A program made the translations under genes and the position numbers. A stretch of DNA of 64,000 nt from an uncultured Planctomycetota bacterium (GTDB taxonomy: Bacteria; Planctomycetota; JAJSAM01; JAKLKS01), in contig CAYJMF010000001.1 in NCBI GenBank assembly GCA_964370855.1, positions 5,905 through 69,904 on the forward strand. The letters are read 5' to 3'. Below are positions 6,055-63,975 of the stretch, in pieces; position 1 is the first letter of the stretch; the number at the start of each line of letters is the position of its first letter. The notes below the pieces were generated by a model that searched no databases, was not told where the DNA came from, and saw nothing but the letters and a program-made list of their open reading frames with translations.

Positions 6055-6354
6055 CTATTCACACACCAGCGTGACAAACAGCACTGCGAACGAGAACCCC
6101 GCCACCGTCGCCACAACCACCCGAAGCGGCCGCGCAACAATAGAGAGGCGGGCTAGCACGATGCAGGCCACCATACACACGAGAGTAGCGGTCCACACAA
6201 TGCCGGCCACCATGGGCACACCCATGCGATATTCGGTGCTCTGGTTCATGAACGCCGCAAACCACGTTAGGACGCTTGCCCCTGCCGCAACAACAGCCAT
6301 CACCACCGCTCCAAGATTTGCCGCCAGCACCAGTACTCTCTTACCTCGCGGCAT
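6055..6354 (-). CDS. small membrane protein (about 3 TM helices); candidate immunity protein
   Basis: 99 aa, strongly hydrophobic (LVLAANLGAVVMAVVAAGASVLTWFAAF ... VAGIVWTATLVCMVACIVLARL ... VVVATVAGFSFAVLFVTLV). Its start overlaps the stop of the upstream lipase-domain giant protein by 14 nt. A gene immediately downstream of a toxin domain is the classic immunity position. Confidence 0.6.
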   Translation of the reverse strand: MPRGKRVLVLAANLGAVVMAVVAAGASVLTWFAAFMNQSTEYRMGVPMVAGIVWTATLVCMVACIVLARLSIVARPLRVVVATVAGFSFAVLFVTLVCE

Positions 6355-30012: not shown

Positions 30013-33000
30013 CGCAGGAACTCGCTCAGGGCCACGGCGTTCACATCGATCGGATCGTCCCCCTCGCAGAGGGGCTCCCCGCATCTCTCCAGAGCCGTCT
30101 CGTTCAGAACATCCAGCGCACCGTCGGGCAGCAAGCCCACCTCCGAGGCCACCCTCTCGAGGTCGGGGCGGCTCCACTGCGGTTTCGCGGCAAGGCCGCG
30201 GAGGAGTCGGCTGTGCGCGGCGTCGAAACCCTCGACGAGGTCCTCTTGGACCGACTCGGCGGGTTCCGGTGCTGCCGGCGCCTCGCACTCCTCCGAGGCG
30301 AAGATACCGCTCAGGAGGCTGGCCACGGCGGCCGTTTCCCGGAGTTTCACCTCGACGGCCTCCATATCGATGGTCACACGGCCGACGTCCGCGGGCTTCT
30401 CCGAAGCCGGCGGCTGAGGGACTGCGAAGGTCCGCGCCGGTGCCCCGGCCACGAAGACCGAGACCGGCCCGACGTCGGGAGCCGTTGGCCGGCTTGCGTG
30501 GGCGTGGGCCCGACTGAAGACTTCCTGCTCCGGGAGCCCCATCGCCTTGAAGAGCTGTCCGAGGACCTTCACCTCCGCCGGCTCGAACCGCCCGTCGGCC
30601 CCGGCGACGGACACGAGCAGGTTGGCGAGAAGGTCGCGCTGGCCCTCGGGGACCTCGATGAGCCGCTTCTTCACTCCGCCCATCCCCGGGGGAGACGCCG
30701 CGAGGTGGCGAAGGTGCGCCCGCAGACGGGTCCTCTCGGGCGGGGAGAAGTCCATGGACGACTCGAGGTGCTCCTCGAGGTGGTCCATCTCCTCGGGGCT
30801 GACGGCCCCGTCGGCGGCGGCCACGACCGAGGCCAACCGTAGAAGGAGCGAGCCGGCGAGGTAGGACGGCGTCGGGGCCTTGAGGGAGGGCTGCGTCTCC
30901 CGGAAGAGGACGACCTTCTCCCCTTTTCCCGGCGCGGCACCCCCGAACCTCACGTCGGGCTCCAGCCCGATGCCCTCCCGTTCCAGGACCTGCGCCAGGG
31001 CGACGGCGTCCGCCTTCCTGAGCTTGTTGCCCGCCACCCCGGGCCATCGCGCGAACAGGTCCTTCCCTTCGACCACGACGTGGTCCTTCCCGGCGAGGGA
31101 GGTGTCCACCCACTCGAGGAGCGCCTTTCCTCCCGCCGTCTCCCTAGGGGACACGAGCCCCTCCGGGAGAAGCGCCGCGGCGGCCAGGGTGCCCGCGGCC
31201 CTGGGACTGCGGTTCACGAACCGGCTGTAGGCATCAAGCTCGTCGGCACAACGGTCGGCGAGCTCGGCCAGGTCGTGGATGGGGCGGCTCAGCCGGTCGA
31301 TGTCGGGAAGGCCATCCACGACTACCTGCTGGGGCCGCGGGATCCCCGAGCAGGCCGGGTTGTACTCCACCCTCCACTTCACGGACCTGGCCGCGACACG
31401 GAGCCCCTCGGCGTAGGCCTGCGAGTAGCGAATGAGGAAGATCTTCCGGAACTCTTCGGGGCATCGTCGCGCCGGAGTCCGGAATCTCACCTCCGGGTGG
31501 TGCAGGAGCCACGCGAACGCCCACTCGCCGGGAAGCGGCTTCCCCTCGGAGATGAATGTTCCGATGGCCTTCTTCAATCTCGGAGGGATGCCCCACCCTC
31601 GCCCTTCCAGGGGCGTCGAGGGTGCGGCAGCCTCGGGTGCCGGCAGGATGAATTCCACGAAGTCGAGGAACTGCCCGGAGTAGGAGCGGAAGGAGCCGTT
31701 GCTCCCGTTGAGTTCGCGAAGCCGCCGCACCTCGTCCAGCAGGGCTCGTGTCTCGGCGACCAGCGTGGCGCTCCGGCTCCGGTCGCCGAGGATGCGCCTC
31801 TCGATGCCGTAGAAGTGCAGGAACACGTGTCCGATGCCGATGCCCGGGTCGTTCCTCCCCTGCTCCATCCATTCGATGTGGGCGGCACGGGCCGCAGGAG
31901 TGAGCGTGGAATAGGAAGGCCAGTAGCTCATCGTGGCCCCGGCCCGGTCGGGACTTGTGAAGTTGGCCGGCAGCTTCGGGTCAATGAGGGCCGGCTCCGC
32001 GTCCCACTCCGACGAGAGGCTGGGCAGTCCCTCGCCGAAGTAGTACCCGCCGCCGGGGAGTTCCCTCCCGCCGATTCGCACCGAACTCCCCGGAGGGACC
32101 CAACAGTCCTGCTCTCTTGCCTTCCCTTCCTTCTTGGACCGGGTCCCGAAGCCGACTCCATCGAACGTGACGGAGTCCTCCTCGGGTTCCCTCCCCCGCG
32201 TCAGGGAGCTGCCCCCGACCTTGACCTCAACCCTCAAGCCGTACCCGAGGTTGACCGCGAGGGGAACTGTCCCAGGAAGGGGCTCGACTCTGACGGGCTC
32301 TCGGCCTGGACCGGGTTCCGGGGGCGAGTAGCTCACGGGCCTCTCCGGGGCCGTCGCCGGCACGCTCTCCCCCCTTGGTGGCGGCCGGTCAGGCACCATC
32401 CTCGAAGGTTCGGTGCCAAGCCTGTCGAGGCACGCCTTTGCGTCCACGTGCTGGAGGTTCACCGCGAAGAACTGCTCCCTCGTCGCGTAAAGAGCGTGGA
32501 CACGGCGGGTCTCCTCCTGCCCCGTCGCCGGATCCAGGTCCCGGACCCACGCCCGCACCGAGATCGCCTTCGTGTGATTCGTGTAGAGCGAGTGGAACGC
32601 CTCGTAGGCGGTTCGGAGCGTGGCTTGCACGAGGGCCGCCTCGAAGAGCGCTCGATGGTCCGCCTTCTTCATCGCGGTCGGCCGCACCTCGTCCCCACGC
32701 GCCACGTACCTGTACTCGGCCACGGACGGGATCGCCCGCTGCGGCGGGAGCATCACGTCCACGACCAGCGTCCCCCTGGGCGCGTCATACACGGCGGTAT
32801 ACTCCCGCGGGAAGCAGTCCGGGTAGGTCGAGCGCTCGAAGACCCCGCGCACGTACTCCTCGATGGCAGAGGCCTCGCCCGCATCGAACCGCCGGCGAAA
32901 GTCCTCCACCTCCCGATTGCGCTCAGCCTGTCCTTCTTCGTACCGCGCCTTCTGACGCCAGTGGGACTCCCATGACTTCTTCCTGGCCTCCTCCCAGGCT

Positions 33001-33605
33001 CGCACCTGGCTCTGCCATCGCTCTTCGTGAGCGCGGGCCTTCTCCTGATCTCCCTGCAGGATCTCCGCTTCAAGGGCAAGTCGTCGCCTCTTGAGTGACG
33101 GCAAGAGCCACTCCCAGAAGCTCGGCTTGGGAATCGAAGAGGGTAGAGGTGAAGGTGGTTGGACGGGGTGGGGGGGCTCGAACGAGAACGGCGGGAACGG
33201 CGCCGTGTCCATGAGCTCCGCCCACTCGAGCCTGGGACTCGTCTTGAGGGCGGCCGGCAGGAGCGAACCCAGGGCCGTGAGCGTCTCCTGAAGACTCTGG
33301 TTCGCCCGCTCCGCATCGTCCTTCGCCCGATCGCGGGCGTCCGTCTTGGCGGCGGCGATCCGCTGCCGGATCTCCTGCTCGTCCCACTTGAGGAGGAGGT
33401 TCTTCGCCTTGCCTCGGACTTCCGCGTCGGACTTCCCCTGGACCGTCCGCACCTCGTTCAAGCAGGAGTTCCGGACGGTCGCGACGTAGACGGGGACGGA
33501 ACGCCGCCGTCCCGACGGAGTCATCCAATCGACCGTGACCCCAATGGTGTGGGACCTTCGCTCGATTTCAGCCCGGATCGCCCGCTCGTCCTCTTCCGAC
33601 CCCAT
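30009..33605 (-). CDS. sngA: large TerB-N/TerB-C domain protein; first gene of the Shango-like operon
   Basis: TerB-type motifs (LRLASVVAAADGAVSPEEMDHLEEHLESSMDFSPPERTRLRAHLRHL and LANLLVSVAGADGRFEPAEVKVLGQLFKAMG). Start chosen at 33605 (MGSEEDE), downstream of the conserved cis-element; 33674/33692 are alternatives. 1198 aa. Confidence 0.75.
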   Translation of the reverse strand: MGSEEDERAIRAEIERRSHTIGVTVDWMTPSGRRRSVPVYVATVRNSCLNEVRTVQGKSDAEVRGKAKNLLLKWDEQEIRQRIAAAKTDARDRAKDDAERANQSLQETLTALGSLLPAALKTSPRLEWAELMDTAPFPPFSFEPPHPVQPPSPLPSSIPKPSFWEWLLPSLKRRRLALEAEILQGDQEKARAHEERWQSQVRAWEEARKKSWESHWRQKARYEEGQAERNREVEDFRRRFDAGEASAIEEYVRGVFERSTYPDCFPREYTAVYDAPRGTLVVDVMLPPQRAIPSVAEYRYVARGDEVRPTAMKKADHRALFEAALVQATLRTAYEAFHSLYTNHTKAISVRAWVRDLDPATGQEETRRVHALYATREQFFAVNLQHVDAKACLDRLGTEPSRMVPDRPPPRGESVPATAPERPVSYSPPEPGPGREPVRVEPLPGTVPLAVNLGYGLRVEVKVGGSSLTRGREPEEDSVTFDGVGFGTRSKKEGKAREQDCWVPPGSSVRIGGRELPGGGYYFGEGLPSLSSEWDAEPALIDPKLPANFTSPDRAGATMSYWPSYSTLTPAARAAHIEWMEQGRNDPGIGIGHVFLHFYGIERRILGDRSRSATLVAETRALLDEVRRLRELNGSNGSFRSYSGQFLDFVEFILPAPEAAAPSTPLEGRGWGIPPRLKKAIGTFISEGKPLPGEWAFAWLLHHPEVRFRTPARRCPEEFRKIFLIRYSQAYAEGLRVAARSVKWRVEYNPACSGIPRPQQVVVDGLPDIDRLSRPIHDLAELADRCADELDAYSRFVNRSPRAAGTLAAAALLPEGLVSPRETAGGKALLEWVDTSLAGKDHVVVEGKDLFARWPGVAGNKLRKADAVALAQVLEREGIGLEPDVRFGGAAPGKGEKVVLFRETQPSLKAPTPSYLAGSLLLRLASVVAAADGAVSPEEMDHLEEHLESSMDFSPPERTRLRAHLRHLAASPPGMGGVKKRLIEVPEGQRDLLANLLVSVAGADGRFEPAEVKVLGQLFKAMGLPEQEVFSRAHAHASRPTAPDVGPVSVFVAGAPARTFAVPQPPASEKPADVGRVTIDMEAVEVKLRETAAVASLLSGIFASEECEAPAAPEPAESVQEDLVEGFDAAHSRLLRGLAAKPQWSRPDLERVASEVGLLPDGALDVLNETALERCGEPLCEGDDPIDVNAVALSEFLR

Positions 33606-33671
33606 CGGCACCCCACCGTTCAGCGCCCGTCTGCTCCGATTCTCTCCTTCAGCAGCCGGAGGAACTCCCTT

Positions 33672-33733
33672 CATTGCAGCACCCACCATCATCGACGTGA
33701 TGGTTGCTCACGGGAAGGACAATCGTGATTCCC
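33672..33733 (-). promoter_or_regulatory. conserved ~62-bp cis-element, copy 2 (upstream of the TerB gene)
   Basis: cattgcagcacccaccatcatcgacgtgatggttgctcacgggaaggacaatcgtgattccc; see copy 1. Confidence 0.5.
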
Positions 33734-43144: not shown

Positions 43145-43319
43145 GTCCTCGCCCGGAGTGGCGACCACCGAGATTACAGACTCTCTGGGAACGAGGACTA
43201 GCCAGGCCTCCTGCGACGGACGAGCACAGAGAAGCAGCCATCCCCCATTGAGGCGACTGGCCTCGGTGTGGCATGCTCAACGAACAGCGCACTCTCCCGT
43301 GCGCAACCGAGGGAATTCC

Positions 43320-44084
43320 ATGAGCGTACTCGTGATCCCGTCCTTCATCAGAAGCCGCTGGGATCGGAAGTGCCTTGATCGCCTGTTGCAGAGCGTCCGC
43401 GAGCAGTCCGTTCCCTTCGACCGTGTGTACGTCGTGGACGATGCGAGCCCCGCGGAGTGGGAGGTCGATCCCGGTCTCGCGGAGCGCATCCGCCTCGACA
43501 AGAACGGCGGGCCCGCCATGGCCCGGAACGTCGGGATCGACCGCGCACTCGCCGATGGCGCTGAGCATGTCCTCTTCACGGACCACGACTGTGTTCTCGA
43601 CCGGGCCTGGAACGAGCACATGGTCCGTTTCCTCGAGATGACGACGTTCGGAGCCGTCGGCGGGATGACCTACGCCCTCGGATCGACGCTGCTCGACCAC
43701 TACCACGACCTGAACGGAACCCTGAACGGCAAGTGGCTCCTCCCGGGCCGAAAGGAGCTCTGGTACATGCCGTCCCTCAACTTCGGCATGAAGGCCGAAG
43801 TGGCGAGGGACTTCACGTTCGACGAGCGGTTCCCCACGGCCGCGGGCGAGGACGTCGACATCTGCCTGCGCATCCGGAGCAAACACCGGATCGGGTTCTG
43901 CCCCGGCGCCAGGCTGTGGCACGACTTCGGCTACCGCTCCACCCTAACGGGACTCCCGCGGTTCGTCCGGCTGTTCATGAAGTACAAGAGCTCCAGCGCG
44001 ACGCTTTACGACGGGCACACGGTCCTGCTCTGGGACTCGTCGGAGTCCATCTATGAGGGGAATGCACATGAGCCTCATCTATAG
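43320..44084 (+). CDS. family-2 glycosyltransferase
   Basis: ATG 43320 with GAGGGA SD. GT-A motifs VYVVDDASP and TDHDCV (DxD). 255 aa. Confidence 0.75.
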   Translation: MSVLVIPSFIRSRWDRKCLDRLLQSVREQSVPFDRVYVVDDASPAEWEVDPGLAERIRLDKNGGPAMARNVGIDRALADGAEHVLFTDHDCVLDRAWNEHMVRFLEMTTFGAVGGMTYALGSTLLDHYHDLNGTLNGKWLLPGRKELWYMPSLNFGMKAEVARDFTFDERFPTAAGEDVDICLRIRSKHRIGFCPGARLWHDFGYRSTLTGLPRFVRLFMKYKSSSATLYDGHTVLLWDSSESIYEGNAHEPHL

Positions 44085-45087
44085 GAAGCGCGCGAATGCC
44101 CCGAGCCTCACGCACTGGATGTACGACTACTACGGGGAGTTGAAGCCGTTCGCCCGCCGCATCGACCGGAAGATGGCGGTGCTCCCGCTCGTGTTCCTGA
44201 AGTCGCTCGAGTGGGCGATCTACCGGTGGTACCGGACCCCGATCCGGCGTTTCTACGGCGTGAAGGGCAACGAGCTGATCTACATGATCACGCGCCGGTG
44301 CGGCGAGCGCTGCCCCAAGTGCAACATCCCGGCGAACCCCGAGTTGAACCCCGATCACCTCGCTTTGGACCACTTTCTCGAGTGCCTGCGCCGGCTCCAC
44401 GAGAACCTCTACCAGGTGACGCTCACGGGTGGCGAGCCGATGATCTTCCGCGAGGATCTCCTTCGCATCGCCGAGGAGGCCCGGATGCTCGGGGTCCCCA
44501 TGGTCGTAGTGACCGCCGGAGCCCTGCTGACGGAGCCGTTCCTCCGCCGGTACGGGGAGCTGCGCCATGTGCTCGTCATCTCGCTCGACACCGTCGATCC
44601 GGCGAAGTGGAAGGCCTTCCGGGGACGCGATCACTACGAGCGGGTCATGCACAACGTCGCCCTCGCCCGGGAGGTCCTGGGCGACCGCCTTCGGGTCCAG
44701 TCGGTCCTCGCCCGGGAGAGCGAGCACGATATCGCTGGCGTTGCCGCGTTCTGCCGGGAACGCGGGATCCGCCACTCGATCCAGCCCTACATGGACTTCG
44801 GCGGCACATGGCACGGCGTCGACGGGTTGAAGGTCGGCGACGAGCCGTGCGCGGCGCGGAAGAACATCTGCATCTACCCGAACGGGGACGTCGTCAAGTG
44901 CTTCGACCACCGGCGCATCCCGATTGCCCGGGATCCCCTCGGCAACATCGGGCGCGAGGACATCATCGAGATCCTGTGCCGTAGGCGCGCGACCGAGGTG
45001 TCACGCGTGATGAAGACATGCAACCTCCCCTGCAAGCAGATGTCCTGCAACAAGCCCGCCGTCCTCCTCGATGAGGTGCCGGCGTGA
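44062..45087 (+). CDS. radical SAM protein with N-terminal extension (possible RRE) and C-terminal Cys-rich SPASM/twitch-like region
   Basis: CxxxCxxC at CGERCPKC about 95 aa from the start. Seven C-terminal Cys (CAARKNICIYPNGDVVKC...LC...TCNLPCKQMSC). Overlaps the GT2 stop. Start 44062 or 44068. Confidence 0.7.
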   Translation: MHMSLIYRKRANAPSLTHWMYDYYGELKPFARRIDRKMAVLPLVFLKSLEWAIYRWYRTPIRRFYGVKGNELIYMITRRCGERCPKCNIPANPELNPDHLALDHFLECLRRLHENLYQVTLTGGEPMIFREDLLRIAEEARMLGVPMVVVTAGALLTEPFLRRYGELRHVLVISLDTVDPAKWKAFRGRDHYERVMHNVALAREVLGDRLRVQSVLARESEHDIAGVAAFCRERGIRHSIQPYMDFGGTWHGVDGLKVGDEPCAARKNICIYPNGDVVKCFDHRRIPIARDPLGNIGREDIIEILCRRRATEVSRVMKTCNLPCKQMSCNKPAVLLDEVPA

Positions 45088-45641
45088 CGCCTCCCGACCT
45101 CATCGTGATCCGAGGGGCGCCGGGCTCCGGAAAGAGCGAGGCCGCGAAGTGCCTGGCGGCGCGTCTCGGCCGTGGCGCACGGGTGGAAGTCGACACGCTG
45201 CGGGCGATGATCGTCTCCGTGGACTGGACAGACCAGCGGGAGCACATCGCCGTGCTTTCGCTTTCCGTGAGCATGGTCGCCGGCTTCCTTCGGCTGGGAC
45301 ACCGCCCCGTGATCGTGGTGGACACCTTCAGCGGGGACAAGTTGGGGAGGTTCCTGGATGACGTCGGAGCCGCACACCCTGGAGCATCGGTGCGCCCGTT
45401 CTCGCTTGCCCCGAGCAAGTCGGCGCTCCGAGCCCGGGTCGAGGCCAGACCGGAGGGTGGCTACAAGGACCTCCGCGTCTGCGAGAAGCTGAATGCAGAT
45501 GTCGCCCGCCGGCTCGTTCCTGGAGAAACGCTCATCGACAACTCCTCGCTCACGCCGGAGGAGTCCGTGGATGTGATCATGAGGGCTTGCCAGATTTCCA
45601 CTCACCTCACTCCCGCCGCAGCGCCCCCTCCGGGAGCTTGA
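45084..45641 (+). CDS. P-loop kinase-like NTPase (AAA_33-like)
   Basis: Walker A GAPGSGKSE near the N-terminus. 185 aa. Start overlaps the radical SAM stop (GTGA). Confidence 0.65.
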   Translation: MTPPDLIVIRGAPGSGKSEAAKCLAARLGRGARVEVDTLRAMIVSVDWTDQREHIAVLSLSVSMVAGFLRLGHRPVIVVDTFSGDKLGRFLDDVGAAHPGASVRPFSLAPSKSALRARVEARPEGGYKDLRVCEKLNADVARRLVPGETLIDNSSLTPEESVDVIMRACQISTHLTPAAAPPPGA

Positions 45642-45936
45642 GCTCCCGCCCGTCGGCGGGGGCGGTGTAGGTACCGAGGTCGGTGCGACCACGCCCGGCG
45701 TTCCAGAAGAGGACGACGGGGCCCGGTGGCAGGCCGCTGAGCCGGAAGGTGCCGTCCTCCGTCGAGGTCTCCACTCCCATGTAGTGCTCCCCTCCCACCT
45801 CGCCCCCGAACCAGGTGCTGAGTGCGGGTTTCCCCTCGGATGTCAGAAGACGGCCGGTGACCTCGAAGCCTTCCTTCACCGTGAGACGGACATTCGATCG
45901 GACGAGGTGGACCGTTCCATGGTCTCCACGGATGAG
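45607..45936 (-). pseudogene. orphan CarboxypepD_reg-like domain fragment (possible remnant)
   Basis: Translation ...GTVHLVRSNVRLTVKEGFEVTGRLL...GTFRLSGLPPGPVVLFWNAGRGRTDLGTY resembles the C-terminal repeat of the 1014-aa protein at 60931-63975 (GKFRLGGLAEGRVRISVFLEGGERDLGEF). No ATG; only an internal GTG. Confidence 0.3.
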
Positions 45937-46040
45937 TCACCGGCCGGGGCCCGGTCGTTTCAGGGTATCCGGGAGAGCATCCAGAGGCGGCCTGGGTGCG
46001 GGAAGGACCGGTGGCGTCGGGATCGGGGGCCGACGGCTCC

Positions 46041-49000
46041 TTACGGGCTGAGGTTCCCGGGGAACAGCTTCCCGTCCTTCTCCACCATGCGCCCGCTCCT
46101 CTGAAGCCTGTCGAGCGTCATGGAGAGACGCCCTCGGATCTCATCACCCGTGCGGGCGAAGCCGAACTCGCGTGAGGTGGCAACGATCGCGTCGCCGGGC
46201 GTTATTCCGTAGGACCTCGCTACGACTGCCTCCAGGCCCGCCGCCAGCTCGACGAAGGAGATCTCGTGGATTCGGGTCCTGCCCCCCGACGAGTCTGTCC
46301 CCCTCGGGCGAGCCGACTTGGCTCCGGGCAGGCAGAAGAACTCCCTCTCCCCGTGGTCCCCGCCGATGGAGTCGTCCAGGTAGACGAACAGCCCGTTCCG
46401 CACAGCCGTCTTCTGGATTTGGCGAAGGCGATCCTCGATCACCCGGCCGATTCGGCCGCATCGATAGAGAGCGCGGAGCCGCTTCCACACGACCTGTTCA
46501 TGTACGGGCTGCTCGACCTTGACCACCTCCGCGATCTTCGAGGCGATCTCATTGTCGCTGGCGGAACTGATGTCATGGCGGGGGATGTTTTTGAAGAGGA
46601 TCCGTTGATAGGGGTCGAAAGCCGAATCCGAAGCGGCCACCTGGACCGTCTCCCTGTACTTCTCGGACGCATCGTCGCCGGACTTCGGTTCGAAGGACGG
46701 CACCGTTGCGGACCGCACCTGTCGAGCCCTCTCAAGCGCCTCCTCCACCCTGGCCACTTCGCGGGCCGGATCCAGAATCCACGACCTCGACCAGATGCGG
46801 TGGATGGTCCATCCCAGCCCCTCCAGGACACTCTGACGCTGCCAGTCCCGGTCGCGGGCGCTGGGGGAGGAGTGGTAGGTCGCACCGTCGCATTCGATCC
46901 CGAGGTCGAACCCCGAACCGTCCTCCGCCTCCACGGCCAGGTCGATGAAGTACCCGTTGCACCCCACCTGGCAGAACACCTTGTGCCCCCGCGAGACGAG
47001 GGCCCTGTAGACGGCCTCCTCGAACTCGCTCTCGGGTGCGTCGGTCGTGGGCCGCACTTCCCCGGCCTCGAGCGCCCCCGCCGGTGATGCTACATACTCC
47101 AGGTACCGCCGGAGGAGCCGAGGGCCCTGCATCTCGGAGGTGATGTCCTGCGGACGGAGGGAGTGAACGACGGTGAGGCTCATCCGGGCGCGGCTCACGG
47201 CGACATTCAGGCGCCGGTGTCCGCCATCGTGGCTCAGGGGACCGAACCGGTTGGGGACCGCGTCGGAGCCCACGGTGGGTCCGTAGCCGATGTCGAGGAT
47301 GATGTGATCCCGCTCGTCCCCCTGGACATTCTCCAGGTTCTTGACGAAGAACCGCTCATGGCGGTCCTCCGCGAACCGGTCGTCGAGCGCGCGCTCCACG
47401 AGTCGTCGCTCGTTCACGAGGCGTTCGATGAGGTCGGCCTGGGCCCTCGACAAAGCGACCACGCCGATGCTCTCCTTGGGGGGGCGGTCTCTCATGAGTT
47501 CGAAGACCTTGTCGACCACGGCCTCCGCCTCACCTGGGTTGGTTCGAGTGCCCCCTGCGTCGTAGCGCGCGTCTGGCAGGTACACGTCCCGGAGTCCCAG
47601 GTCCGGACGCCCGGGGGAAGCCGTTGGGAATACGAGCAGCCGGCCATCGTAGAAGTAGCGGTTCGAGTACCGGATCAGGTCCTCGTGTCGGCTCCGGTAG
47701 TGGACCATGAGGGAGTGCTCCTCGACGGCAAGCCCCTTCAGACCCACCATTGCATCGAGGATGCTCTCGCGTCCCACGGTCAGGCTCTCCGGGGTCACAT
47801 CGGCTTCCTCGAGCGGAGCATCGTCCTCATCGGCACCCTCACTCCTGAAGAAGTGGGTCGGGGGCAGTTGATGTTCGTCCCCCACGACGACGGCCTGATC
47901 GGCCCGAGATAGCGCGGGAATGGCATCCCAGGGAAAGACCTGCGAAGCCTCGTCGAAGATCACCGTATCGAAGGCGGGCCCCGTTTCCGTCACGGCACAG
48001 CGCGGGAGGAACTGGCTCACGGCCAGCGGGCTCATGAGGAAGCAGGGCTTGAGGGACTGGATGACATTGGGGATCTCCTCCATGAGCCACCGGACCGGGC
48101 GCTGCCTTCGCTTCTTCGTGAGCTCGGTCTGGAGCTGTCCCAGTTCCCCGAGGCCGCGCGTGGGAAGCCCCTGGTCGGGGTACTTGCCGAAGCACCGCTC
48201 CCGAACCCGCTCCCGGTTCGCAAGAACGAAGGCGCGGTCCAGGTCCTTGAAACTGCGGCGGCGCGCGTCAAGGTCCGGCGCCGTCGTGCGCAACTCCGTC
48301 GTCGTGGCGTAGGCGTGATCGAGCCAGGCCTCGTACACCCTTCGAAGAACGACTCCAGGAACTTCGTCCGCGTTGTCGGTGGCCTGCCACACTCCATCCA
48401 CCACCCCGTCCTCCAGGAAGGCGTGAACCTCCTCCACGGCCTGCAGGTAGTCCAGCCAGGCATGGGCGGACTCGGGGGCTTCCAGGATCTCCTCAGACCA
48501 GGCCTTGCCCGTCTCGAATCGGAATGTCTCCGCATCAGGGCAGGGAGTCTCCTGGAGGCTGAAAATCAGACCGGCCGCTGCATGCGCCTCGGCCAGCTTC
48601 GCGACAAGGCCCTTCAACCGGGCGGCAGGCTTCCGGTAGTCCTCCCCCTGTTGGGGGTGTTCCAGGTGGCACTTCAAGACATCGCTGGTGATGTCGGGGA
48701 GCGCCTCCCCATGACCGCCCATCCACTGTGCGGCAGGTCCCAGCGAGGCCCAGTCACCGGTCTCCGGGAGGAACTCCTCCGGAACTTCGGCAAACAGGGT
48801 CCTCCAGATGTCGTCCAGAGTCCTCCGGCACTCGTCCCGGTTCTGAACGGCTCTCAACGCCCCCCTCAGCGACTCCAACGATGGAACCGCGTCGGACAGG
48901 CATCCACTCAGCCGGGACCGCGCACCGGCCAGGATCTCTGCCACGGCCCTCACTGCCGTCAGGGCCTCCAGGATGTCGCTCACATGTGTGGCAGGATCGA

Positions 49001-51749
49001 TGGCGCCCCTGCTGACTCCCTCCAGGTAGGCGACTCCGGTCGGGAGAGCCCCCGGATCCTCCGAGGGGGCGCACTCCCTCCACAACATGTCCGTGGTTTG
49101 CCGCAGGGCCCTCATCCTCTCCAGGACCGTGGCTCTCGCCTCCCCAAGCTCCTTCTTCGCTTCCTTGGAACACAGGAGGGAGGGGAGCGTGTCTCCGGAC
49201 AGCCGCTCCTCCACGAGGAGAGAAGGCACCTGCCCGAGGAGCCCGGTCAGGACCTCCCAGTCTCCGACCGAAGCATCAAAGACGCCGGCCGTGGCCATTG
49301 ACAAGGCATGCATCTGCTCCTTCAGCTCGGCGCGCTTCTCCTTGACCTGCATGACCCGGTTCAGGACGGAGAGAATGTCCTCCCGCACCAGCTTTCCAGA
49401 CGAAGTCCTGTTGCCGGCCACGGTCCGCCAGTCGCGCCGGTACTGCATCGAGAACAGGCGGCGCCAGAAGGACTGGTAGTCCACCTTGAAGCGGAGGAGC
49501 ATGTCCTCGTCTACGGCATCCACGAGCCGTAGCGAGTAGTCGCTGGCCAGGTCCATCTCCGCGGCGGTGAGTTCCCTCCGGAGGACCCCGGCCCTCTCGG
49601 CTAGGACCTCGATCCTGCGGACACCCTCCACGGTGCTCCACACGGCAGGAAGCACGGGCAGTCTCCCCAGCGCGAGGCTGGTGTCGAGCGCCCATGGGAC
49701 ATCATCCAGTGAGTCCGGAGTCGGCCGCGCCATCAGGAGGGAGTGGAGGGCATTCGCCCCGGCGAGGAGCCCCCGAAACGAGGACTCGACGGCGGCGATG
49801 TGTCGCGCAACCAGTTCATTCCGTTCCAGGAGAAGGCGGTCCCAGTCGGCCCCCAGAAGTACTCGGCACGCCCTGCCCTTGGACTCGTCGATGTTGAGCA
49901 GGGTGAGGATGTCGGGAATGGACTCCAGTGCGGGGGAGTGGGTGAACACGACGGCAATCTCCCCGTCAAGTCTCCGAACCTCCTCCACCTTCGGCAGGGC
50001 CCTTCCGTACAGGTCCCGGAACTTCCTCCGGCGCGATGGAGAGCACCAGGCGGAGGGGACGCCGGGACATGTGGCCATGGCATCGAGAATCGGGACCAGC
50101 CGCGAAGCCTCTCCGGCGCACCGGGGCCGTTCCGTCCCCAGCCACCGCCCTGTCGCCTCCGACTCCCGGTCGAGTTCCTCGATGGCCCCGCCGAGGGCAT
50201 TCGCAACGTCACGGATGTCCGTGGTCAGGCGAAGCGTGCTCGACCGGGCCTTAAGGGCCCTCCACCGGCTGGTGCCGTGTTCCGAGTACTCGCGCTGACG
50301 ACGCTGGATCCTCGCGAGGGCGCCGTCAATCTGCGAGAGACGCTCTCCTGTGAGGCCCCCGACACCGGTCACAGAGAAGTCCACCACGGGATAGTCATGG
50401 ACCAGGCTGAACCTGCCCTGAACCTGGAACACGGTGAGCCCCAGTGGCTCCCGAACCCGATGAAGTTCCCTGGTCAGGGTGTTGAGCTGGGTCCGTATCT
50501 TCTCCAGCTTCTCGAAGGGCACCCCCTTTGCCCGGGTCCGGGATTCATCGAGCGCATCCCGGAGTTGTCCGTAAACGGACGCCTTGCGTCCTCTCTCGCT
50601 GTGAAGGTCCAGGCAGAAGACTCCCAGGTCGCACTCCTCTAGTCGCCGCTTCACCACATCCAGGGCGGCGGTCTTCTCGCTTACGAAGAGGACCCTCTTC
50701 CCGTCGGCGAGCAACCCCGCGATGATGTTGGCGATGGTCTGGGACTTTCCCGTTCCCGGAGGCCCGTGAATCACCATGTGGGAGCCGGCCCTTGCACGCT
50801 CGATGGAGATCAACTGGCTGAAGTCGGCCTCCATCACCGTGTGTTCGTTCTTCACGCCGATCAGGTCATCCAGCCTCCCCCCCGTGAGCTCCGCGACGGG
50901 GGGGAACGGGGAGGCGTGCTTCTCACTCTCGTCCCTGAGGCTTCCGATGTCTCCGGCGAGGCACCGAACGAGGGGATGGTCCACCCCCTGCTTGCGCATC
51001 GCGTCCAGGTCCTCCCAGATGGCCATCTTCGAGAAGGCGAAAGTGGCGAGGTAGACATCCTCCCGGACCACCCAGTCCGGCTTCCCTCGGATGGCCTCCC
51101 GGACCCGATCGAGGTACTGGGATGGAGACTCCTGCCCAAGGTCGGGGATCTCCACTCCCAGCGCCCCGACCTTCTGGCGCAGGGTGGAGTTGTGGACGGG
51201 ATCGTCCCCCTCCTTCAGGAGGAGGAAGGGATCCCGGGGAGACTCCCGCAGAAGGTCGCAGGGGCAGAGGAACAACGGCGCGATGGCCCGGGTCCCCTCG
51301 TCGTCGATCCACTGGAGGGTCCCGACCGCCAGGAACAGGACGTTGAGGCCCTGCTCCTCCATCCACTCGCGCTCCCTCTTCCGGAGAGCGGAGAGCCGCT
51401 TCTGGAGCTCACGGGGGTCGCCATCGGTGTCGAGATCCCCTTCGATGACGAAGTAGTCAGGCTCGGACTCGTCATCAGCACTGCTCTCGGGTGCGAAGAG
51501 GTTCCTCTCGTCCCGCCTCCCCCGGGGCTGAACATGGTCGAAGGACAGCCCCTTCTCGGAGTCCTCCAGGTTCTGGTAGAGGTCGTCCACGTCCTCGGTA
51601 AGGATGCGGACGGAGGAGCGGCTAGCCTTGAAGTAGAGGAGGCCGTTGCGGCGATCGAGCTGGAGGACGCGCGCCTGCCACTCCGCGATCCGCGTCTTCA
51701 GGTCGGACCTGGAGGATGCCCTGTCGCCGTTGGGTCCCATCGCCTTCAC
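46041..51749 (-). CDS. 1902-aa DUF4011 / Upf1-DNA2-like SF1 helicase with C-terminal REase-like (DUF559) and DUF3320-like domains
   Basis: Walker A HGPPGTGKSQT and Walker B VIFDEASQ. SF1 C-terminal motifs (VVGDEHQLPP, YRSRHEDLI, LNVAVSRAR). A Vsr/DUF559-like endonuclease fold (FCQVGCNGYFIDLAVEAEDGSGFDLGIECDGATYHSSPSARDRDWQRQSVLEGLGWTIHRIWS) and a long C-terminal tail. Confidence 0.85.
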   Translation of the reverse strand: MKAMGPNGDRASSRSDLKTRIAEWQARVLQLDRRNGLLYFKASRSSVRILTEDVDDLYQNLEDSEKGLSFDHVQPRGRRDERNLFAPESSADDESEPDYFVIEGDLDTDGDPRELQKRLSALRKREREWMEEQGLNVLFLAVGTLQWIDDEGTRAIAPLFLCPCDLLRESPRDPFLLLKEGDDPVHNSTLRQKVGALGVEIPDLGQESPSQYLDRVREAIRGKPDWVVREDVYLATFAFSKMAIWEDLDAMRKQGVDHPLVRCLAGDIGSLRDESEKHASPFPPVAELTGGRLDDLIGVKNEHTVMEADFSQLISIERARAGSHMVIHGPPGTGKSQTIANIIAGLLADGKRVLFVSEKTAALDVVKRRLEECDLGVFCLDLHSERGRKASVYGQLRDALDESRTRAKGVPFEKLEKIRTQLNTLTRELHRVREPLGLTVFQVQGRFSLVHDYPVVDFSVTGVGGLTGERLSQIDGALARIQRRQREYSEHGTSRWRALKARSSTLRLTTDIRDVANALGGAIEELDRESEATGRWLGTERPRCAGEASRLVPILDAMATCPGVPSAWCSPSRRRKFRDLYGRALPKVEEVRRLDGEIAVVFTHSPALESIPDILTLLNIDESKGRACRVLLGADWDRLLLERNELVARHIAAVESSFRGLLAGANALHSLLMARPTPDSLDDVPWALDTSLALGRLPVLPAVWSTVEGVRRIEVLAERAGVLRRELTAAEMDLASDYSLRLVDAVDEDMLLRFKVDYQSFWRRLFSMQYRRDWRTVAGNRTSSGKLVREDILSVLNRVMQVKEKRAELKEQMHALSMATAGVFDASVGDWEVLTGLLGQVPSLLVEERLSGDTLPSLLCSKEAKKELGEARATVLERMRALRQTTDMLWRECAPSEDPGALPTGVAYLEGVSRGAIDPATHVSDILEALTAVRAVAEILAGARSRLSGCLSDAVPSLESLRGALRAVQNRDECRRTLDDIWRTLFAEVPEEFLPETGDWASLGPAAQWMGGHGEALPDITSDVLKCHLEHPQQGEDYRKPAARLKGLVAKLAEAHAAAGLIFSLQETPCPDAETFRFETGKAWSEEILEAPESAHAWLDYLQAVEEVHAFLEDGVVDGVWQATDNADEVPGVVLRRVYEAWLDHAYATTTELRTTAPDLDARRRSFKDLDRAFVLANRERVRERCFGKYPDQGLPTRGLGELGQLQTELTKKRRQRPVRWLMEEIPNVIQSLKPCFLMSPLAVSQFLPRCAVTETGPAFDTVIFDEASQVFPWDAIPALSRADQAVVVGDEHQLPPTHFFRSEGADEDDAPLEEADVTPESLTVGRESILDAMVGLKGLAVEEHSLMVHYRSRHEDLIRYSNRYFYDGRLLVFPTASPGRPDLGLRDVYLPDARYDAGGTRTNPGEAEAVVDKVFELMRDRPPKESIGVVALSRAQADLIERLVNERRLVERALDDRFAEDRHERFFVKNLENVQGDERDHIILDIGYGPTVGSDAVPNRFGPLSHDGGHRRLNVAVSRARMSLTVVHSLRPQDITSEMQGPRLLRRYLEYVASPAGALEAGEVRPTTDAPESEFEEAVYRALVSRGHKVFCQVGCNGYFIDLAVEAEDGSGFDLGIECDGATYHSSPSARDRDWQRQSVLEGLGWTIHRIWSRSWILDPAREVARVEEALERARQVRSATVPSFEPKSGDDASEKYRETVQVAASDSAFDPYQRILFKNIPRHDISSASDNEIASKIAEVVKVEQPVHEQVVWKRLRALYRCGRIGRVIEDRLRQIQKTAVRNGLFVYLDDSIGGDHGEREFFCLPGAKSARPRGTDSSGGRTRIHEISFVELAAGLEAVVARSYGITPGDAIVATSREFGFARTGDEIRGRLSMTLDRLQRSGRMVEKDGKLFPGNLSP

Positions 51750-52391
51750 CTGCCTGATCCCGCCGAGGGCACCTCGGCTTCCCGATCGAAGAGGTTACCG
51801 TCCGATGCTGCGAGAACGGCATCGCATCCACGACTCCCGGGAGTCCGGCTCCTCCGAATCGAAGGGGTGACGCCGGCCCAGGGGGAGGGTCTTCCCGAGA
51901 TCGTCGTGTGGCTGGAACCGGCCGGCACTTGACAGTGTCGGGAGCGGCGACGTCCGTTGTCGCCGCCATCCACTCCGGCGAACACGGGCGGGTCCCTTCG
52001 CGGAGCCTCGGGTTCCTCGGCCGAGGAGTACCTCAAGGCGCCCGCCGGGTGGGAGGACCTTGCCGCCGCCTTGGCGGACGCCTTGACGGCCGGCCCCGGG
52101 GAGTCCGTCGAGGTGCGGATCAGGGTGATGCGGAACTAGGAGGTCCAGAGAACGACTGTGGCTGTTAACGGCAGGGTTGTAGGTTTGAGTCCTATTCGGG
52201 GAGCCACACAACCGTCGTCGGCTCCGTCCCTTGCGGCGACCGGGGCTGTCCCGTCCTGTGCGTCCGACCGGCCGTGGCACCCAACATGGCACCCTGAATG
52301 CGGCCAACGGCACGACTCATACCCCATGGGACCGGGGGAGTCAACGGAGGTCGGACCGGGCGTCGGGGGTCGGTAGTACTCTCCCTTCGCC

Positions 52392-53021
52392 ATGAGTTGG
52401 GCCCAGACCGTCACCAGGAACCTGCTGCCGCTTTCGGTCGCCGACACCTTTGAGGCGGCGATGCAGGAGTGGGCTGCGACCGGAGACTGCGAGATCCGTG
52501 AGGAGGCCGACGGGACCTGCGAACTCTGCGAGCATGAAGACATCCGCTACGAGTTCGAGATCACCAACGACCTGAATGGGAATCGGATGGAGGCAGTCGG
52601 GTCGAAGTGCATCACGAAGTTCATCCGCCTCTTCGACGGCGAGGTGGAGATCCTGGGGGAGTCGAACAAGGACGCCTATCTCGCTCGGCGGGCAAGGCAG
52701 GCCCTCGATGCGATGCGGAGGGACAAGGCCTGGGGCGTGCTTCTGGCCATCTCCCGGAAGAACACCGACTTCCCCGCCGCGCACCTCTTCGAGTCGTGGG
52801 AGAAGGGGCACACGATCAAGCAGTTGTGGTGGATCCTGTCCGCGGGCAAGCACGCGAGCATCCAAGTGGATATCGGCCTCTTCAACGCGGCCTTCAGGCG
52901 GGAGAGGTACAGGGACCAGGTACGCGAGACCCCGCCATGGAAGTACGCGAAGATCCGTCCTGCTCTTTCATCCGCGCAGCGGGCGAAGTACGACCCCGAG
53001 TTCGGCTGGAAGGGGAAGTAG
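52392..53021 (+). CDS. hypothetical protein with Cys/His cluster
   Basis: 209 aa. GDCEIREEADGTCELCEHEDIRYEF ... GSKCITKF is a possible metal-binding motif. No family recognised. Confidence 0.5.
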   Translation: MSWAQTVTRNLLPLSVADTFEAAMQEWAATGDCEIREEADGTCELCEHEDIRYEFEITNDLNGNRMEAVGSKCITKFIRLFDGEVEILGESNKDAYLARRARQALDAMRRDKAWGVLLAISRKNTDFPAAHLFESWEKGHTIKQLWWILSAGKHASIQVDIGLFNAAFRRERYRDQVRETPPWKYAKIRPALSSAQRAKYDPEFGWKGK

Positions 53022-60930: not shown

Positions 60931-63900
60931 CTATCGGACGACGACTTCGACTCCGGCCGCCGGAGCACCGAACTCCCCAAGATCCCGTTCGCCCCCCTCG
61001 AGGAAAACGGAGATCCGCACCCTCCCCTCGGCGAGCCCGCCAAGGCGGAACTTCCCGTCGTCCCCCGGCCAGGCCTGCACCAGCGTGGGCACGGGCACGG
61101 ACTGCCGTGCCATGAGGAGCTGCACCTTCACCGGCTTCCCGTCGCCGTCGAGGAGGCGCCCCTCCAGCACGACCCCGGGCGCCACGCGCACTCCCGCTTC
61201 CCCCTGGTCCGGCCGGACCGGAGACTCGGCCGCGCCGGCCGCGAACTCCCCGCCCTCTCCTCCGGCAGCCACGATGTACTCCCGGTCTTCGAGTCCCCCG
61301 AGGGTGAACCGCCCGTCGGACCCGGTCACCGCCCTCGCGGCCATGCTGACCGCATTCGGGTCCTCGCCCGTGCGCCAGGCGCGTACCACCACCCCGGCCG
61401 GTGCGGCGCTCCCGTCGGCCAGGAGCACGCGCCCCGCGATGGAACGCCCCACCGTCAGGACGACCTTCACCCCCGTCGCGCCCGGTGCCACGCCCTCGAC
61501 CCTGGCCCCCGCCGTCCCGGAGAAGTCCCCCCTCTCCGCCACGATGTCGTAGGTGCGCCCCGTCCTCAGGGCCGGGGTGTTGAACTCCCCCCACATCCCC
61601 ACAGGCACGGTCGTGGCCTTGTCCCCGCCTTCCCCCCGGGGAACGATGGTCAGGGTCCCCTTCCCCTTCCACCGGCCGCCCGCTTCGTCCACGAGGAAGC
61701 CCGCGATGGGGAGTCCGCGGTGAAGACGGACCTCCAGGTTCTCCGTCCCCGCGGCCACGCCCTCCAGGCGCGTCGGGGCATAGAGCCCGGCCTGGTTGCT
61801 GTCCCCCTGGTAGGGGTCGGGGTCCACGAGGATGTCGTAGGTCCCGGGCTCGAGCCCTCCGAGTCGGAAGGTCCCGTCGGGGAGGGAGCGGCCCTGCCGC
61901 CCCTGGCCGGGAGGAACCGGCCGGGCGAAGAGGCGCATGGCCAGTGCGGCGGGGCGCCCCTCCTCGTCCACGAGCCGCCCTGCGAGGGCGAGCCCGCGGC
62001 GGAGGGACAGCCGAAGGTCCCGGGTCCCCGTCGCGACGCCGCTCCGCTGGACAGGAACGAAGATCCCGTCCCCCTCCTGGTCCCCCGCCGTGACCTCGTG
62101 GGGACCGTCAAGGAGACCGGTCACCGTGAAGGTGCCGTCGGAGCGGGTCAGCGCCCTTCCACTGCTCCAGCGGTCGCCGAACTGGCCCGCGGCCCTGACC
62201 GGGACGCCCGCGACCGACTCCCCCGTGGCCCCGTCGAGGGCGACCCCGCCGATGGAGCCGAGGGACTCGAGGACCAGGGCAAGCGGCTGCCCGCCGGGAC
62301 GGGCCCGGAGCCGGGCCGGCAGGAGGCCGGGCGCGGAGACGATGACCTGGTACTCGATGTCCGCGAGCCCCCCGACCGCGAACTTGCCGTCGGCGCCGCT
62401 CACGCCGCGGATGGCCATGAGGTAGGTGGGCCCCCACGTCTCCTCCGCGACGACGACCTCCGCTCCCTCCACCGGCACCCCCTCGCCGTCGAGGATGCGA
62501 CCCTCGAGGCGGGATTCGGGCGCGAGGCGAACGGAGACCTCCTCCCGTTGCTCCCCGGGCTCGAGCTGCAGGGTGGGGCCGCGGGAGGGGCCGAAGCCGG
62601 GAGCCTCGGCGAGAAGGGTCACCGTCCCGCTCCGCACCTCCTCGAACCGGAAGGAGCCGTCGGCGGCGACGGGAGTCATCCCCCCGTGCCACTTCCCGCT
62701 CTCCCAGAAGTTCATCCCCGGGCGGCCCTCCGGGCTCCCCTGCAGAAGCCACAGGCGGGCACCGCCGACCGCGGAGCCGTCGGGCGCCGTCACCCGCCCG
62801 GCGAGGGAGGAGCCGGGATGGTCCACGACGACCACGGTGATGCCCGTCGCCTTCCCGCCCTCAGGCAGGTCGAAGGGGTCCGACTTCCCCCACCGGCCCC
62901 CGGGGCCGGGGACGAAGGCGGTGACCGTGACCCCGGTGCCTGTGCGGACTCCCTCCAGTCGGTAGTCCCCGTCCAACCCCGTCGGCTCGGCGACACCTCC
63001 GCTCTGGAACCCCGTGGGCCCCGCATGGAGCATCGCCCCGGCCAGGGGGTTCCCGTCGCGGTCCACGACTCTCCCTTCGACCACCGCCCCCGCGGGAAGG
63101 GCGAAGTCGCGGATCACCTCGCCGGACTCCGGCAGCTCCACGACGAGGGACTCCGGAGCCAGACCCTTCTGGAGCGCCTGGGCGGACCAGGGCGGCTGGT
63201 CGGGGTGGTGGTGGAGGTCGTCCCCCACGAAGAAGAGCGCCCGCTTCCCGCCGCGGGTGCGCAGGAGGTAGCGCCCCTCCGTGTCGGCCTCGGTCCGCGG
63301 ACTCGTGTCCCCGTCCTGCCCTTCGAGGAGGATCGTCACACTGGACCCGGGTAGCGGGGTTCCCGCGGTGTCGGTGATGCGGCCACGCACGACCACGCCC
63401 CTCTCCAGGGGAAGGTCCAGGCGGTAGGGAACACCGTCCTCGAGGGGAGGCCTCTCGGACGGAGGGGGGCTGAAGGCGTTGGCGAGGAACCCCTCCTTCT
63501 CCGCGGACACGGTGCAGAGGCTGCCGGCGGGAAGGTCGCGAAGGACGAAGGTCCCGTCGGGGTTGGAGAGCGCGGTGGGGTAGGTGCTTCGGAAGGGGGA
63601 GCCGCCCGCGGTGACCCAGGCGACCACGGACGCTCCTTCCAGGGGTGCCCCCGTCGCGGCGTCGAGGACCCGGCCCTCCATCCGGGCTCCGTCCTCGAGG
63701 ACGAGGTCGAGGCGCTCCGGCCCGGGGAGGAGAACCGACCCCATCTCCTGCACGGTGCCCGAGGGGAGACGCAGGCGGATCTCGAGGAGCCCCGGGGTGA
63801 GGCCCTCCATCCGCCAGAGGCCCCGGGAGTCGGTCATGCAGCTGAGGTGGCTGAACCCGGCCGTCCGGGCGTCCCAGGGTGGGGATAGCAGGACCTCCAC

Positions 63901-63975
63901 CCCGGGGACGGGGGCATTGTCCCTGGTGCGGAGGCTCCCGGCCAACCCGCAGGACCGCTGGAGGAGGACGACCAT
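60931..63975 (-). CDS. large protein composed of about 10 tandem CarboxypepD_reg-like beta-sandwich domains
   Basis: Repeated GxVxDxxGxPxxGAxV...DGxFRLxGLxxGxY modules throughout 1014 aa. Confidence 0.7.
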   Translation of the reverse strand: MVVLLQRSCGLAGSLRTRDNAPVPGVEVLLSPPWDARTAGFSHLSCMTDSRGLWRMEGLTPGLLEIRLRLPSGTVQEMGSVLLPGPERLDLVLEDGARMEGRVLDAATGAPLEGASVVAWVTAGGSPFRSTYPTALSNPDGTFVLRDLPAGSLCTVSAEKEGFLANAFSPPPSERPPLEDGVPYRLDLPLERGVVVRGRITDTAGTPLPGSSVTILLEGQDGDTSPRTEADTEGRYLLRTRGGKRALFFVGDDLHHHPDQPPWSAQALQKGLAPESLVVELPESGEVIRDFALPAGAVVEGRVVDRDGNPLAGAMLHAGPTGFQSGGVAEPTGLDGDYRLEGVRTGTGVTVTAFVPGPGGRWGKSDPFDLPEGGKATGITVVVVDHPGSSLAGRVTAPDGSAVGGARLWLLQGSPEGRPGMNFWESGKWHGGMTPVAADGSFRFEEVRSGTVTLLAEAPGFGPSRGPTLQLEPGEQREEVSVRLAPESRLEGRILDGEGVPVEGAEVVVAEETWGPTYLMAIRGVSGADGKFAVGGLADIEYQVIVSAPGLLPARLRARPGGQPLALVLESLGSIGGVALDGATGESVAGVPVRAAGQFGDRWSSGRALTRSDGTFTVTGLLDGPHEVTAGDQEGDGIFVPVQRSGVATGTRDLRLSLRRGLALAGRLVDEEGRPAALAMRLFARPVPPGQGRQGRSLPDGTFRLGGLEPGTYDILVDPDPYQGDSNQAGLYAPTRLEGVAAGTENLEVRLHRGLPIAGFLVDEAGGRWKGKGTLTIVPRGEGGDKATTVPVGMWGEFNTPALRTGRTYDIVAERGDFSGTAGARVEGVAPGATGVKVVLTVGRSIAGRVLLADGSAAPAGVVVRAWRTGEDPNAVSMAARAVTGSDGRFTLGGLEDREYIVAAGGEGGEFAAGAAESPVRPDQGEAGVRVAPGVVLEGRLLDGDGKPVKVQLLMARQSVPVPTLVQAWPGDDGKFRLGGLAEGRVRISVFLEGGERDLGEFGAPAAGVEVVVR

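Follow-up and report, generated by a model that had tools for sequence, protein, structure and literature searches.

What does a single gene of 1902 codons, lying among defence-type genes in an island of lower-GC (guanine plus cytosine) DNA, do for its host, and does it belong to a defence system that already has a name? The question is raised by a 64,000-nucleotide (nt) stretch of contig CAYJMF010000001.1 (assembly GCA_964370855.1, positions 5,905 to 69,904), from an uncultured Planctomycetota bacterium; this whole stretch is called the window here, and positions are counted from its first letter. The gene in question (46041-51749, minus strand) encodes a helicase fused to a nuclease. A preliminary description, made from the sequence alone, had taken it for a stand-alone helicase-nuclease whose architecture is not assigned to a named, validated system. 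This last point has to be withdrawn, as Hhe has the same Pfam domain order, and a ProA equivalog and a PADLOC entry, PDC-S37, also exist. As to function, we consider it quite probable that the gene encodes a single-protein antiphage (anti-mobile-DNA) helicase-nuclease of Hhe/ProA type, because of the Pfam order that it shares with Hhe, its matches to PADLOC and NCBIfam models, its invariant motifs, its predicted Upf1-like fold, its modularity and its island setting.

The open reading frame (ORF) runs over 1902 codons from a GTG at 51749. An in-frame ATG at 51740, three codons in and with the stretch AGGTGAAGG immediately upstream, is probably the likelier start and would give a product of 1899 amino acids (aa). 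This 1899-aa form is the one used by public gene callers (P0001, 100% identical), and it is present on 30 contigs of the public collection, again at 100% identity. The Pfam scan bears out the composition that had been proposed for the ORF, and the protein consists, in this order, of DUF4011, a split Upf1-like superfamily 1B (SF1B) helicase, an MTES_1575 nuclease and DUF3320. The N-terminal DUF4011 domain (51171-51668, on the minus strand like all the parts that follow; residues 28-193, E-value 1.3e-28) precedes the first part of RecA1 (50430-50852), which carries the Walker A motif G329-PPGTGKS-336. An all-helical insertion of ~790 aa inside RecA1 (48060-50429, residues ~440-1230) then separates this part from the rest of RecA1 and RecA2 (47070-48059), where the motifs DEASQ, GD..QLPP, QGDER and RRLNV and the residue R1520 are found. 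In Pfam terms, AAA_11 matches in two stretches, one of them at residues 311-372 (E 4.5e-17), and AAA_12 matches residues 1341-1528 (E 7.3e-16). Next comes the MTES_1575 endonuclease domain of Vsr/DUF559 type (46734-47024; residues 1576-1672, E 7.2e-34), with the motif IDLA...GIECDGATYH...ARDRD, and finally the C-terminal DUF3320 region (46059-46574), made of two modules (residues 1732-1819 and 1832-1897). The nuclease had been expected under the name DUF559; it is found through the sister model MTES_1575, at 116.2 bits against a gathering score of 38.2, whereas the DUF559 model itself falls marginally short at the same place (residues ~1576-1672, 20.5 bits against a cut-off of 20.6). The DUF3320 match (residues 1726-1772, 22.8 bits, E 9.1e-5) is slightly under its 25-bit cut-off, and DUF3320 is carried by most full-length homologues. 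No promoter-like or terminator-like sites were found across 45000-52600.

Conservation was judged in alignments of 31 and of 69 homologues, at ~40% identity. Invariant across both are, in the motor, Walker A GPPGTGKS (329-336), DEASQ (1266-1270), GD..QLPP (1290-1297), QGDER (1476-1480) and RRLNV..R (1512-1520) and, in the nuclease, D1603, E1619, C1620, D1621, Y1625, R1632, D1633, R1634 and D1635; the invariant residues of the DUF4011 region include W24, Q30, R34, N35, W129, E132, Q133, G134 and D149. In helicase terms the motor stretches cover motifs I, II, III, V and VI, with the arginine finger among the invariant features, and the nuclease keeps its D...ExD motif. Judged by these alignments, the gene is intact, and its ATPase and nuclease motifs are strongly conserved. 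The motor is identified as an Upf1-like SF1B helicase with a two-RecA fold, since the core of the AlphaFold2 (AF2) model finds IGHMBP2 (E 3.5e-11), Upf1, Sen1, Aquarius and Dna2 as its best Foldseek matches, which agrees with the Upf1-like assignment made earlier. SETX, ZNFX1 and nsp13 are further Foldseek matches, and the PDB sequence matches, located in RecA1, are to IGHMBP2 and Upf1 only (4b3g, 2xzl).

In the AF2 model, DUF4011 forms an alpha/beta domain over about residues 10-255, with a predicted local distance difference test (pLDDT) score of ~85-93. An AlphaFold model of residues 1131-1902 has a pLDDT of 78, with values over 90 for RecA2, nuclease and tail. The C-terminal ~170 residues are modelled as two helix-helix-helix-strand-strand modules (1732-1819 and 1832-1897, pLDDT ~90-97 in the AF2 model), which may be read as winged-helix-like. 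The insertion that splits RecA1 consists of helical units that repeat within it, and every unit has a conserved tryptophan (W496, W568, W704, W1009 and W1142 are invariant); the length of the insertion varies among Hhe, ProA and the clade of the window protein. For the nuclease, the fold claim rests on Pfam, because the whole-model structure search was swamped by the helicase, and because the matches of the domain profile to PDB sequences are weak (RAP-domain chains and 3hrl, E ~0.01-0.02).

How might such a protein act? Upf1-like motors translocate 5'-3' on single strands, and Vsr/DUF559-type domains are metal-dependent endonucleases. We propose that the gene entered a tRNA/integrase-associated defence island as a module of one gene, and that the SF1B motor of its product would use ATP to load onto, and translocate along, single-stranded nucleic acid, with the 5'-3' polarity and the DNA substrate that its family would suggest. 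The fused metal-dependent endonuclease of Vsr/DUF559 type would then cut the nucleic acid that is being tracked. DUF4011, the ~790-aa helical insertion and the tandem winged-helix-like modules may gate or target this activity, and such gating could limit it to DNA replication or recombination intermediates that are specific to infection.

A number of observations weigh against a defence enzyme of Hhe/ProA type. First of all, what the protein acts on, with which polarity and on what trigger, and the parts played by DUF4011 and the insertion, are all inferred, and neither fold search gave a meaningful structural match to a solved fold for the N-terminal 1200 residues. Second, the window protein fails both NCBIfam equivalog cut-offs, scoring 1076.7 bits against 1500 for ProA (NF058533.1, 'anti-phage protein ProA') and 706.1 bits against 2000 for Hhe (NF042953; best stretch residues 1077-1694). 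Third, the central ~600 aa of the protein cannot be aligned with Hhe by BLAST, and ProA has an N-terminal extension of ~350-370 aa that has no counterpart here (profile positions 1-349 are unmatched). PDC-S37, for its part, is mentioned in no paper that we found, PDC-focused papers included. Finally, some members of the family sit in places that do not look like defence islands: a full-length homologue with 42% identity (P0035; locus L090, 8001-13670) lies between thrS/biotin carboxylase and infC-rpmI-rplT-pheST, and in Pseudomonas aeruginosa a DUF4011 gene is a core gene flanking the defence hotspot cDHS1 (PMC10250203).

The site of P0035 resembles that of the P. aeruginosa gene, which is at the translation-gene flank of cDHS1 (PMC10250203); such placement could mean that insertion recurs at this site, or that some members have a role outside immunity. 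It is from these cases that another reading draws its strength, namely that the protein is a genome-maintenance enzyme, engaged in repair, R-loop or replication-fork processing, whose place in the island is incidental. The large DUF4011 gene is present in all isolates of P. aeruginosa as the core flank of cDHS1 (PMC10250203), and Upf1-like helicase-nucleases such as Dna2, which are among the structural matches, are repair enzymes. Three properties of the gene and one of its relatives speak against a maintenance role, and we consider it unlikely.

The first is the setting, which is a tRNA/integrase-bounded defence island, as the preliminary description had it. A tRNA-Gly(ccc) gene (2882-2956) marks the island edge, a tyrosine integrase (3149-4717) lies beside it, and after the integrase follow ~55 kb of lower-GC DNA (about 5000-60000; GC 0.58-0.69 against 0.72-0.75 outside). 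The helicase gene is there in the company of at least five defence-type genes. Within the island are a PD-Lambda-1 protein (19704-22217), Shango SngC and SngA (26421-33707), an Abi_alpha protein, a Hypoth_Ymh/HEPN protein resembling PD-Lambda-3_B, and a NERD protein. The island further holds an IS1595 transposase, two subtilases and a ParE-like/DUF7682 protein.

The second is mobility. Nucleotide homology to the nearest relative, which has 69% identity, covers 46052-51760 only, that is, the ORF +/- 11 nt, and the relatives with 69% and 59% identity lie in mobile contexts unrelated to that of the window, the former with ArdA, RadC, a methyltransferase and a primase as neighbours, the latter with ParB and an integrase. 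The contexts of more distant relatives vary greatly; one of these relatives lies in an evident defence island that also holds GmrSD, an AAA_15/21 ATPase and a type I restriction-modification system. Partners were sought in a survey of 83 related loci from species-representative genomes: the neighbours in the window recur in 0/83 of these, save the radical SAM gene once, and no ORF family of the flanks is present in more than 6/83. The helicase gene is a stand-alone, one-gene mobile module; its stand-alone status had been proposed before, and the absence of a recurrent partner and the end of homology at the ORF borders both uphold it. The trio of small gene, DUF4011 gene and radical SAM gene that P. 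aeruginosa brought to mind (PMC10250203) was considered as a partner set and rejected, with the radical SAM gene in 1/83 loci and the small ORF in 0. Apart from this, four Clostridia loci (L010, L026, L067 and L071) stand out, as two co-oriented genes recur directly 3' of distant helicase homologues (in 5 and 4 loci); the family may thus have a variant made up of several genes.

The third is distribution, in that the family is often carried by plasmids (490 PLSDB plasmid records); in phage genomes it is nearly absent (1/50,697 records). More than 5,800 proteins match the window helicase at E<=1e-20, in many bacterial phyla and some archaea, and the full-length relatives, with ~1870-1900 aa and ~40% identity, come from Planctomycetota, Chloroflexota, Gemmatimonadota, Acidobacteriota, Bacteroidota, Proteobacteria, Clostridia and Bathyarchaeia. 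Finally, protection against phages is reported for Hhe, a protein of the same architecture (10.1101/2022.06.16.496414).

The plasmid records bear on a further explanation, in which the protein serves mainly in competition between mobile elements, by anti-plasmid exclusion, exclusion of integrative and conjugative elements (ICEs) or island addiction, and not in phage defence. Conjugative plasmids make up 213 and mobilizable ones 136 of the 490 records, the bona fide ProA control gene adjoins an IncFII replicon, the neighbours of the 69% relative are typical ICE or plasmid cargo, and the near absence from phage genomes points the same way. However, Hhe has been scored on phages (10.1101/2022.06.16.496414; PMC11482910), a plasmid-borne defence gene is equally expected if the target is phage, and the data here do not separate plasmid from phage targets. 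We thus regard a role mainly in such competition as improbable, and retain phage defence by a single protein as the preferred reading.

Some other features of the island may be described here. The 3' end of the tRNA-Gly gene has no second copy in the window that could serve as an att repeat, and no flanking direct repeat was found around 45300-52500. A 51-nt, tRNA-Asn(GTT)-like 3' portion with a CCA end (52156-52206, plus strand) is located ~410 nt upstream of where the helicase ORF begins. It has the anticodon loop CTGTTAA, as in the bona fide tRNA-Asn, and a T-arm, and lacks a 5' half; it ends in TCGGGGAGCCA, the last 11 nt being identical to the 3' end of the bona fide tRNA-Asn, and it occurs once in the window. 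Read from the sequence, with neither ARAGORN nor Rfam making a call on it, the piece may be an old attachment-site relic at a module boundary. Two long minus-strand ORFs were also noted in the window: one of 1553 aa in the lowest-GC stretch (6341-11002) has no Pfam and no PADLOC match, and one of 1000 aa with a GC of 0.735 (15598-18600) has no Pfam match.

What, then, is the short coding stretch on the other side of the helicase stop? The preliminary description had seen, after this stop and without an ATG, a piece homologous to the C-terminus of a 1014-aa repeat protein encoded elsewhere in the window (60931-63975, minus strand), and had taken it for a decayed copy of that gene, into or next to which the helicase gene had inserted. 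An orphan repeat frame of CarboxypepD_reg type is indeed present on the minus strand (45607-45936, 330 nt, 109 codons). It begins 105 nt after the helicase stop and not directly after it, a spacer of 104 nt (45937-46040) leading from the helicase stop to the in-frame stop that opens the frame. Inside it lies a 90-aa ORF with a GTG start (45607-45879), 160 nt after the helicase stop. There is no ATG ahead of the homology start, as had been said, and no Shine-Dalgarno sequence at the GTG; GC at third codon positions (GC3) is 0.82 in this frame.

The similarity to the 1014-aa protein stands and is beyond chance. BLASTP gives 34.7 bits, where 489 same-length pieces taken from all six window frames reach at most 27.3 and 500 shuffled sequences at most 23.9, and a hidden Markov model (HMM) of the 11 repeats of the 1014-aa protein matches the fragment at 30.4 bits (E 1.8e-11; control maxima 6.1 and 10.2). 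The 1014-aa protein has seven Pfam CarboxypepD_reg stretches; the fragment itself is below the gathering score of that model (PF13620; 15.4 bits against 32.3, E 0.024). As to which part of the 1014-aa protein it resembles, the C-terminal repeat does match, at 34%, and an internal repeat (residues 653-711) gives the best pairwise match, at 41%. Descent from that very gene is not supported: identity is 33-41%, there is no nucleotide similarity, and GC is 0.685 against 0.74. Moreover, phmmer, run exhaustively over 1.84 billion representatives, returned 747 proteins at E<=1e-3, all of them long, equally distant multi-repeat proteins of at most 42% identity, and we do not take the fragment for a copy of the 1014-aa gene.

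The fragment is read instead, from its sequence matches, as the 5'-truncated terminal repeat and native-looking C-terminus of a multi-repeat gene of CarboxypepD_reg type, because the phmmer matches are long repeat proteins, and because in at least 19 of the top 150 the fragment aligns with the very C-terminus. The homology carries on over the 19 codons 5' of the GTG (repeat boundary VRLTV/KEGFEVTGRLL), which fits a 5'-truncated gene. One repeat is detectable, and no further decayed repeats were found upstream of the fragment in six frames of 45300-46600.

Could the 90-aa ORF instead be a functional small beta-sandwich partner of the helicase, for instance an adaptor or regulator transcribed together with it? 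It shares the strand of the helicase gene and lies 160 nt further on, with no terminator-like site between; the GC3 of its frame is coding-like, and public gene callers annotate it. However, neither of the two closest helicase homologues has the fragment downstream of it, and tblastn finds it in none of the other compared loci. A word-index search of 5.8 billion proteins found no close relative, and its 90% cluster has 2 members. An ATG and a Shine-Dalgarno sequence are missing, the homology 5' of the GTG is as expected for a truncated gene, and the ORF overlaps a convergent kinase gene by 35 nt. We consider such a partnership very improbable indeed, and keep to the reading as a gene remnant.

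The kinase gene belongs to a 2.3-kb cassette of overlapping genes (GT2, radical SAM-SPASM and AAA_33 kinase; 43298-45590, plus strand), which has 84-85% nucleotide identity to two other loci (L086, 9250-11523, and L087, 4868-7160), with unrelated flanks on both sides. Its right breakpoint, 45590, is 17 nt past the stop codon of the fragment. The 450 nt from 45591 to 46040 are a stub between two independently mobile modules, since breakpoints bound it on both sides. The 5' truncation of the fragment faces the helicase, and it is plausible that helicase insertion caused it, which fits the insertion supposed in the preliminary description; the cause is not provable, and on its other side, too, the fragment adjoins a breakpoint, namely that of the cassette. 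The junction is an example of the way in which modules of one or a few genes build up defence islands and leave gene stubs between them. The cassette itself is context and does not belong to the helicase system; possibly it is a mobile module for modification or defence. In both L086 and L087, a tRNA-Arg(cct) gene lies ~1 kb downstream of the cassette, followed in one of them by an integrase and pieces of BREX, and the radical SAM protein of the cassette has weak PADLOC matches to pVip (E 6.5e-15).

It remains to place the window protein among known systems. Nhi is another Upf1-like helicase-nuclease among defence or repair proteins. Mokosh (MkoA/MkoC) likewise joins an Upf1-like SF1B motor to a nuclease, and its PADLOC matches to the window protein are weak (90-100 bits) and limited to the helicase core; Mokosh has a COG1112 helicase and a PLD nuclease, whereas the Pfam scan of the window protein shows no PLD domain. 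Dna2, a structural match, also has an SF1B motor joined to a nuclease, but this is an N-terminal RecB-type nuclease that is not in the window protein. Both families differ further in being without DUF4011, the long insertion or a Vsr-type domain.

Hhe is much closer. It is the single-gene 'helicase + Vsr endonuclease' defence system of Gao et al. (2020). Like the window gene it is a single gene for ~1900 aa, and its Pfam domains come in the same sequence: DUF4011, an AAA_11 interrupted by a very long insertion, AAA_12 and MTES_1575/DUF559. Identity between the two proteins is 31% for residues 112-474 and 36% for residues 1085-1706, and the aligned sequence takes in the nuclease motif IECDG..YH..ARDRD. 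The hhe gene of Klebsiella also adjoins other defence genes; it has 99.8-99.9% DNA identity to the E. coli gene found in 309/5426 complete genomes. As a single-gene system, Hhe is reported to give protection from lambda, T3, T7 and PhiV-1, with activity lost in a point mutant of its nuclease domain (10.1101/2022.06.16.496414); T7 class II genes of DNA metabolism behave as its triggers (PMC11482910). The published mutation is E1731A, but RefSeq Hhe has A at 1731, and the Glu of the motif is E1727, 4 residues away; we infer that the mutated residue corresponds to E1619 of the window protein. Besides the unalignable centre, the differences lie in the tail and in the hosts: the Pfam list of Hhe is without DUF3320, whereas the window protein has a ~230-aa tail with the two putative winged-helix-like modules, and Hhe is enterobacterial, whereas the clade of the window protein is environmental (Planctomycetota, Chloroflexota, Acidobacteriota and others).

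ProA, for which the literature search did not find the naming paper, is likewise a stand-alone gene with DUF4011, helicase, MTES_1575 and DUF3320 in the same order. The window protein fits the ProA profile to its final position, 1903, with identities to ProA of 29% over residues 20-555 and 36% over residues 1088-1674; the C-terminal DUF3320 region is common to both, and tail-to-tail BLAST is weak (E 0.008). Owing to its extension, ProA has DUF4011 beginning at residue 375, compared with 28 here, and its helical insertion is ~250 aa shorter. How far these kinships go can be gauged from control proteins. An Hhe control (Klebsiella/E. coli WP_009309938.1, 1911 aa, a plasmid gene annotated hhe) scores 2731 bits on the Hhe model, and a ProA control (Raoultella pNY1A, an IncF plasmid; WP_004118855.1, 1963 aa) scores 2223.8 bits on the ProA model. 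The cross-score of Hhe on the ProA model is 1131 bits, a level that the window protein also reaches, as do three of its relatives (P0002, P0004 and P0035). The window protein is thus neither an Hhe nor a ProA orthologue, since its ProA score is at the level of the Hhe cross-match.

Its top PADLOC model is PDC-S37, at 1172.5 bits in three stretches, the best of which (residues 943-1893) reaches the C-terminus, compared with 494 bits for the PADLOC Hhe model. The PADLOC search displays no curated cut-off for PDC-S37, and a PADLOC run on the window protein would probably give this label; PADLOC PDC entries are 'guilt-by-embedding' candidates, mostly untested (PMC12988326). By these scores the window protein is to be placed in a third, mostly environmental, PDC-S37-matching clade of the DUF4011 superfamily. 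Its distinguishing features are the absence of the ProA N-terminal extension, the longer insertion of repeated helical bundles in RecA1 and the two C-terminal modules. That this clade is also a mechanistically distinct third branch of the DUF4011 helicase-nucleases we hold to be rather unlikely. If it were, the repeated helical insertion, and not the motor, would be the infection sensor, the specificity for substrate and trigger would be unlike that of Hhe, and the members located at thrS-infC would be a hint that the ancestral role lay outside immunity. Since the PDB sequence search found no solved structure of any relative, and the literature search no mechanistic study on one, a soluble member of the clade could serve biochemistry. 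The practical value of the present comparison is correct labelling: rather than a new system, the window adds a divergent, high-GC environmental representative to an architecture that is already named (Hhe, ProA) and listed by PADLOC (PDC-S37).

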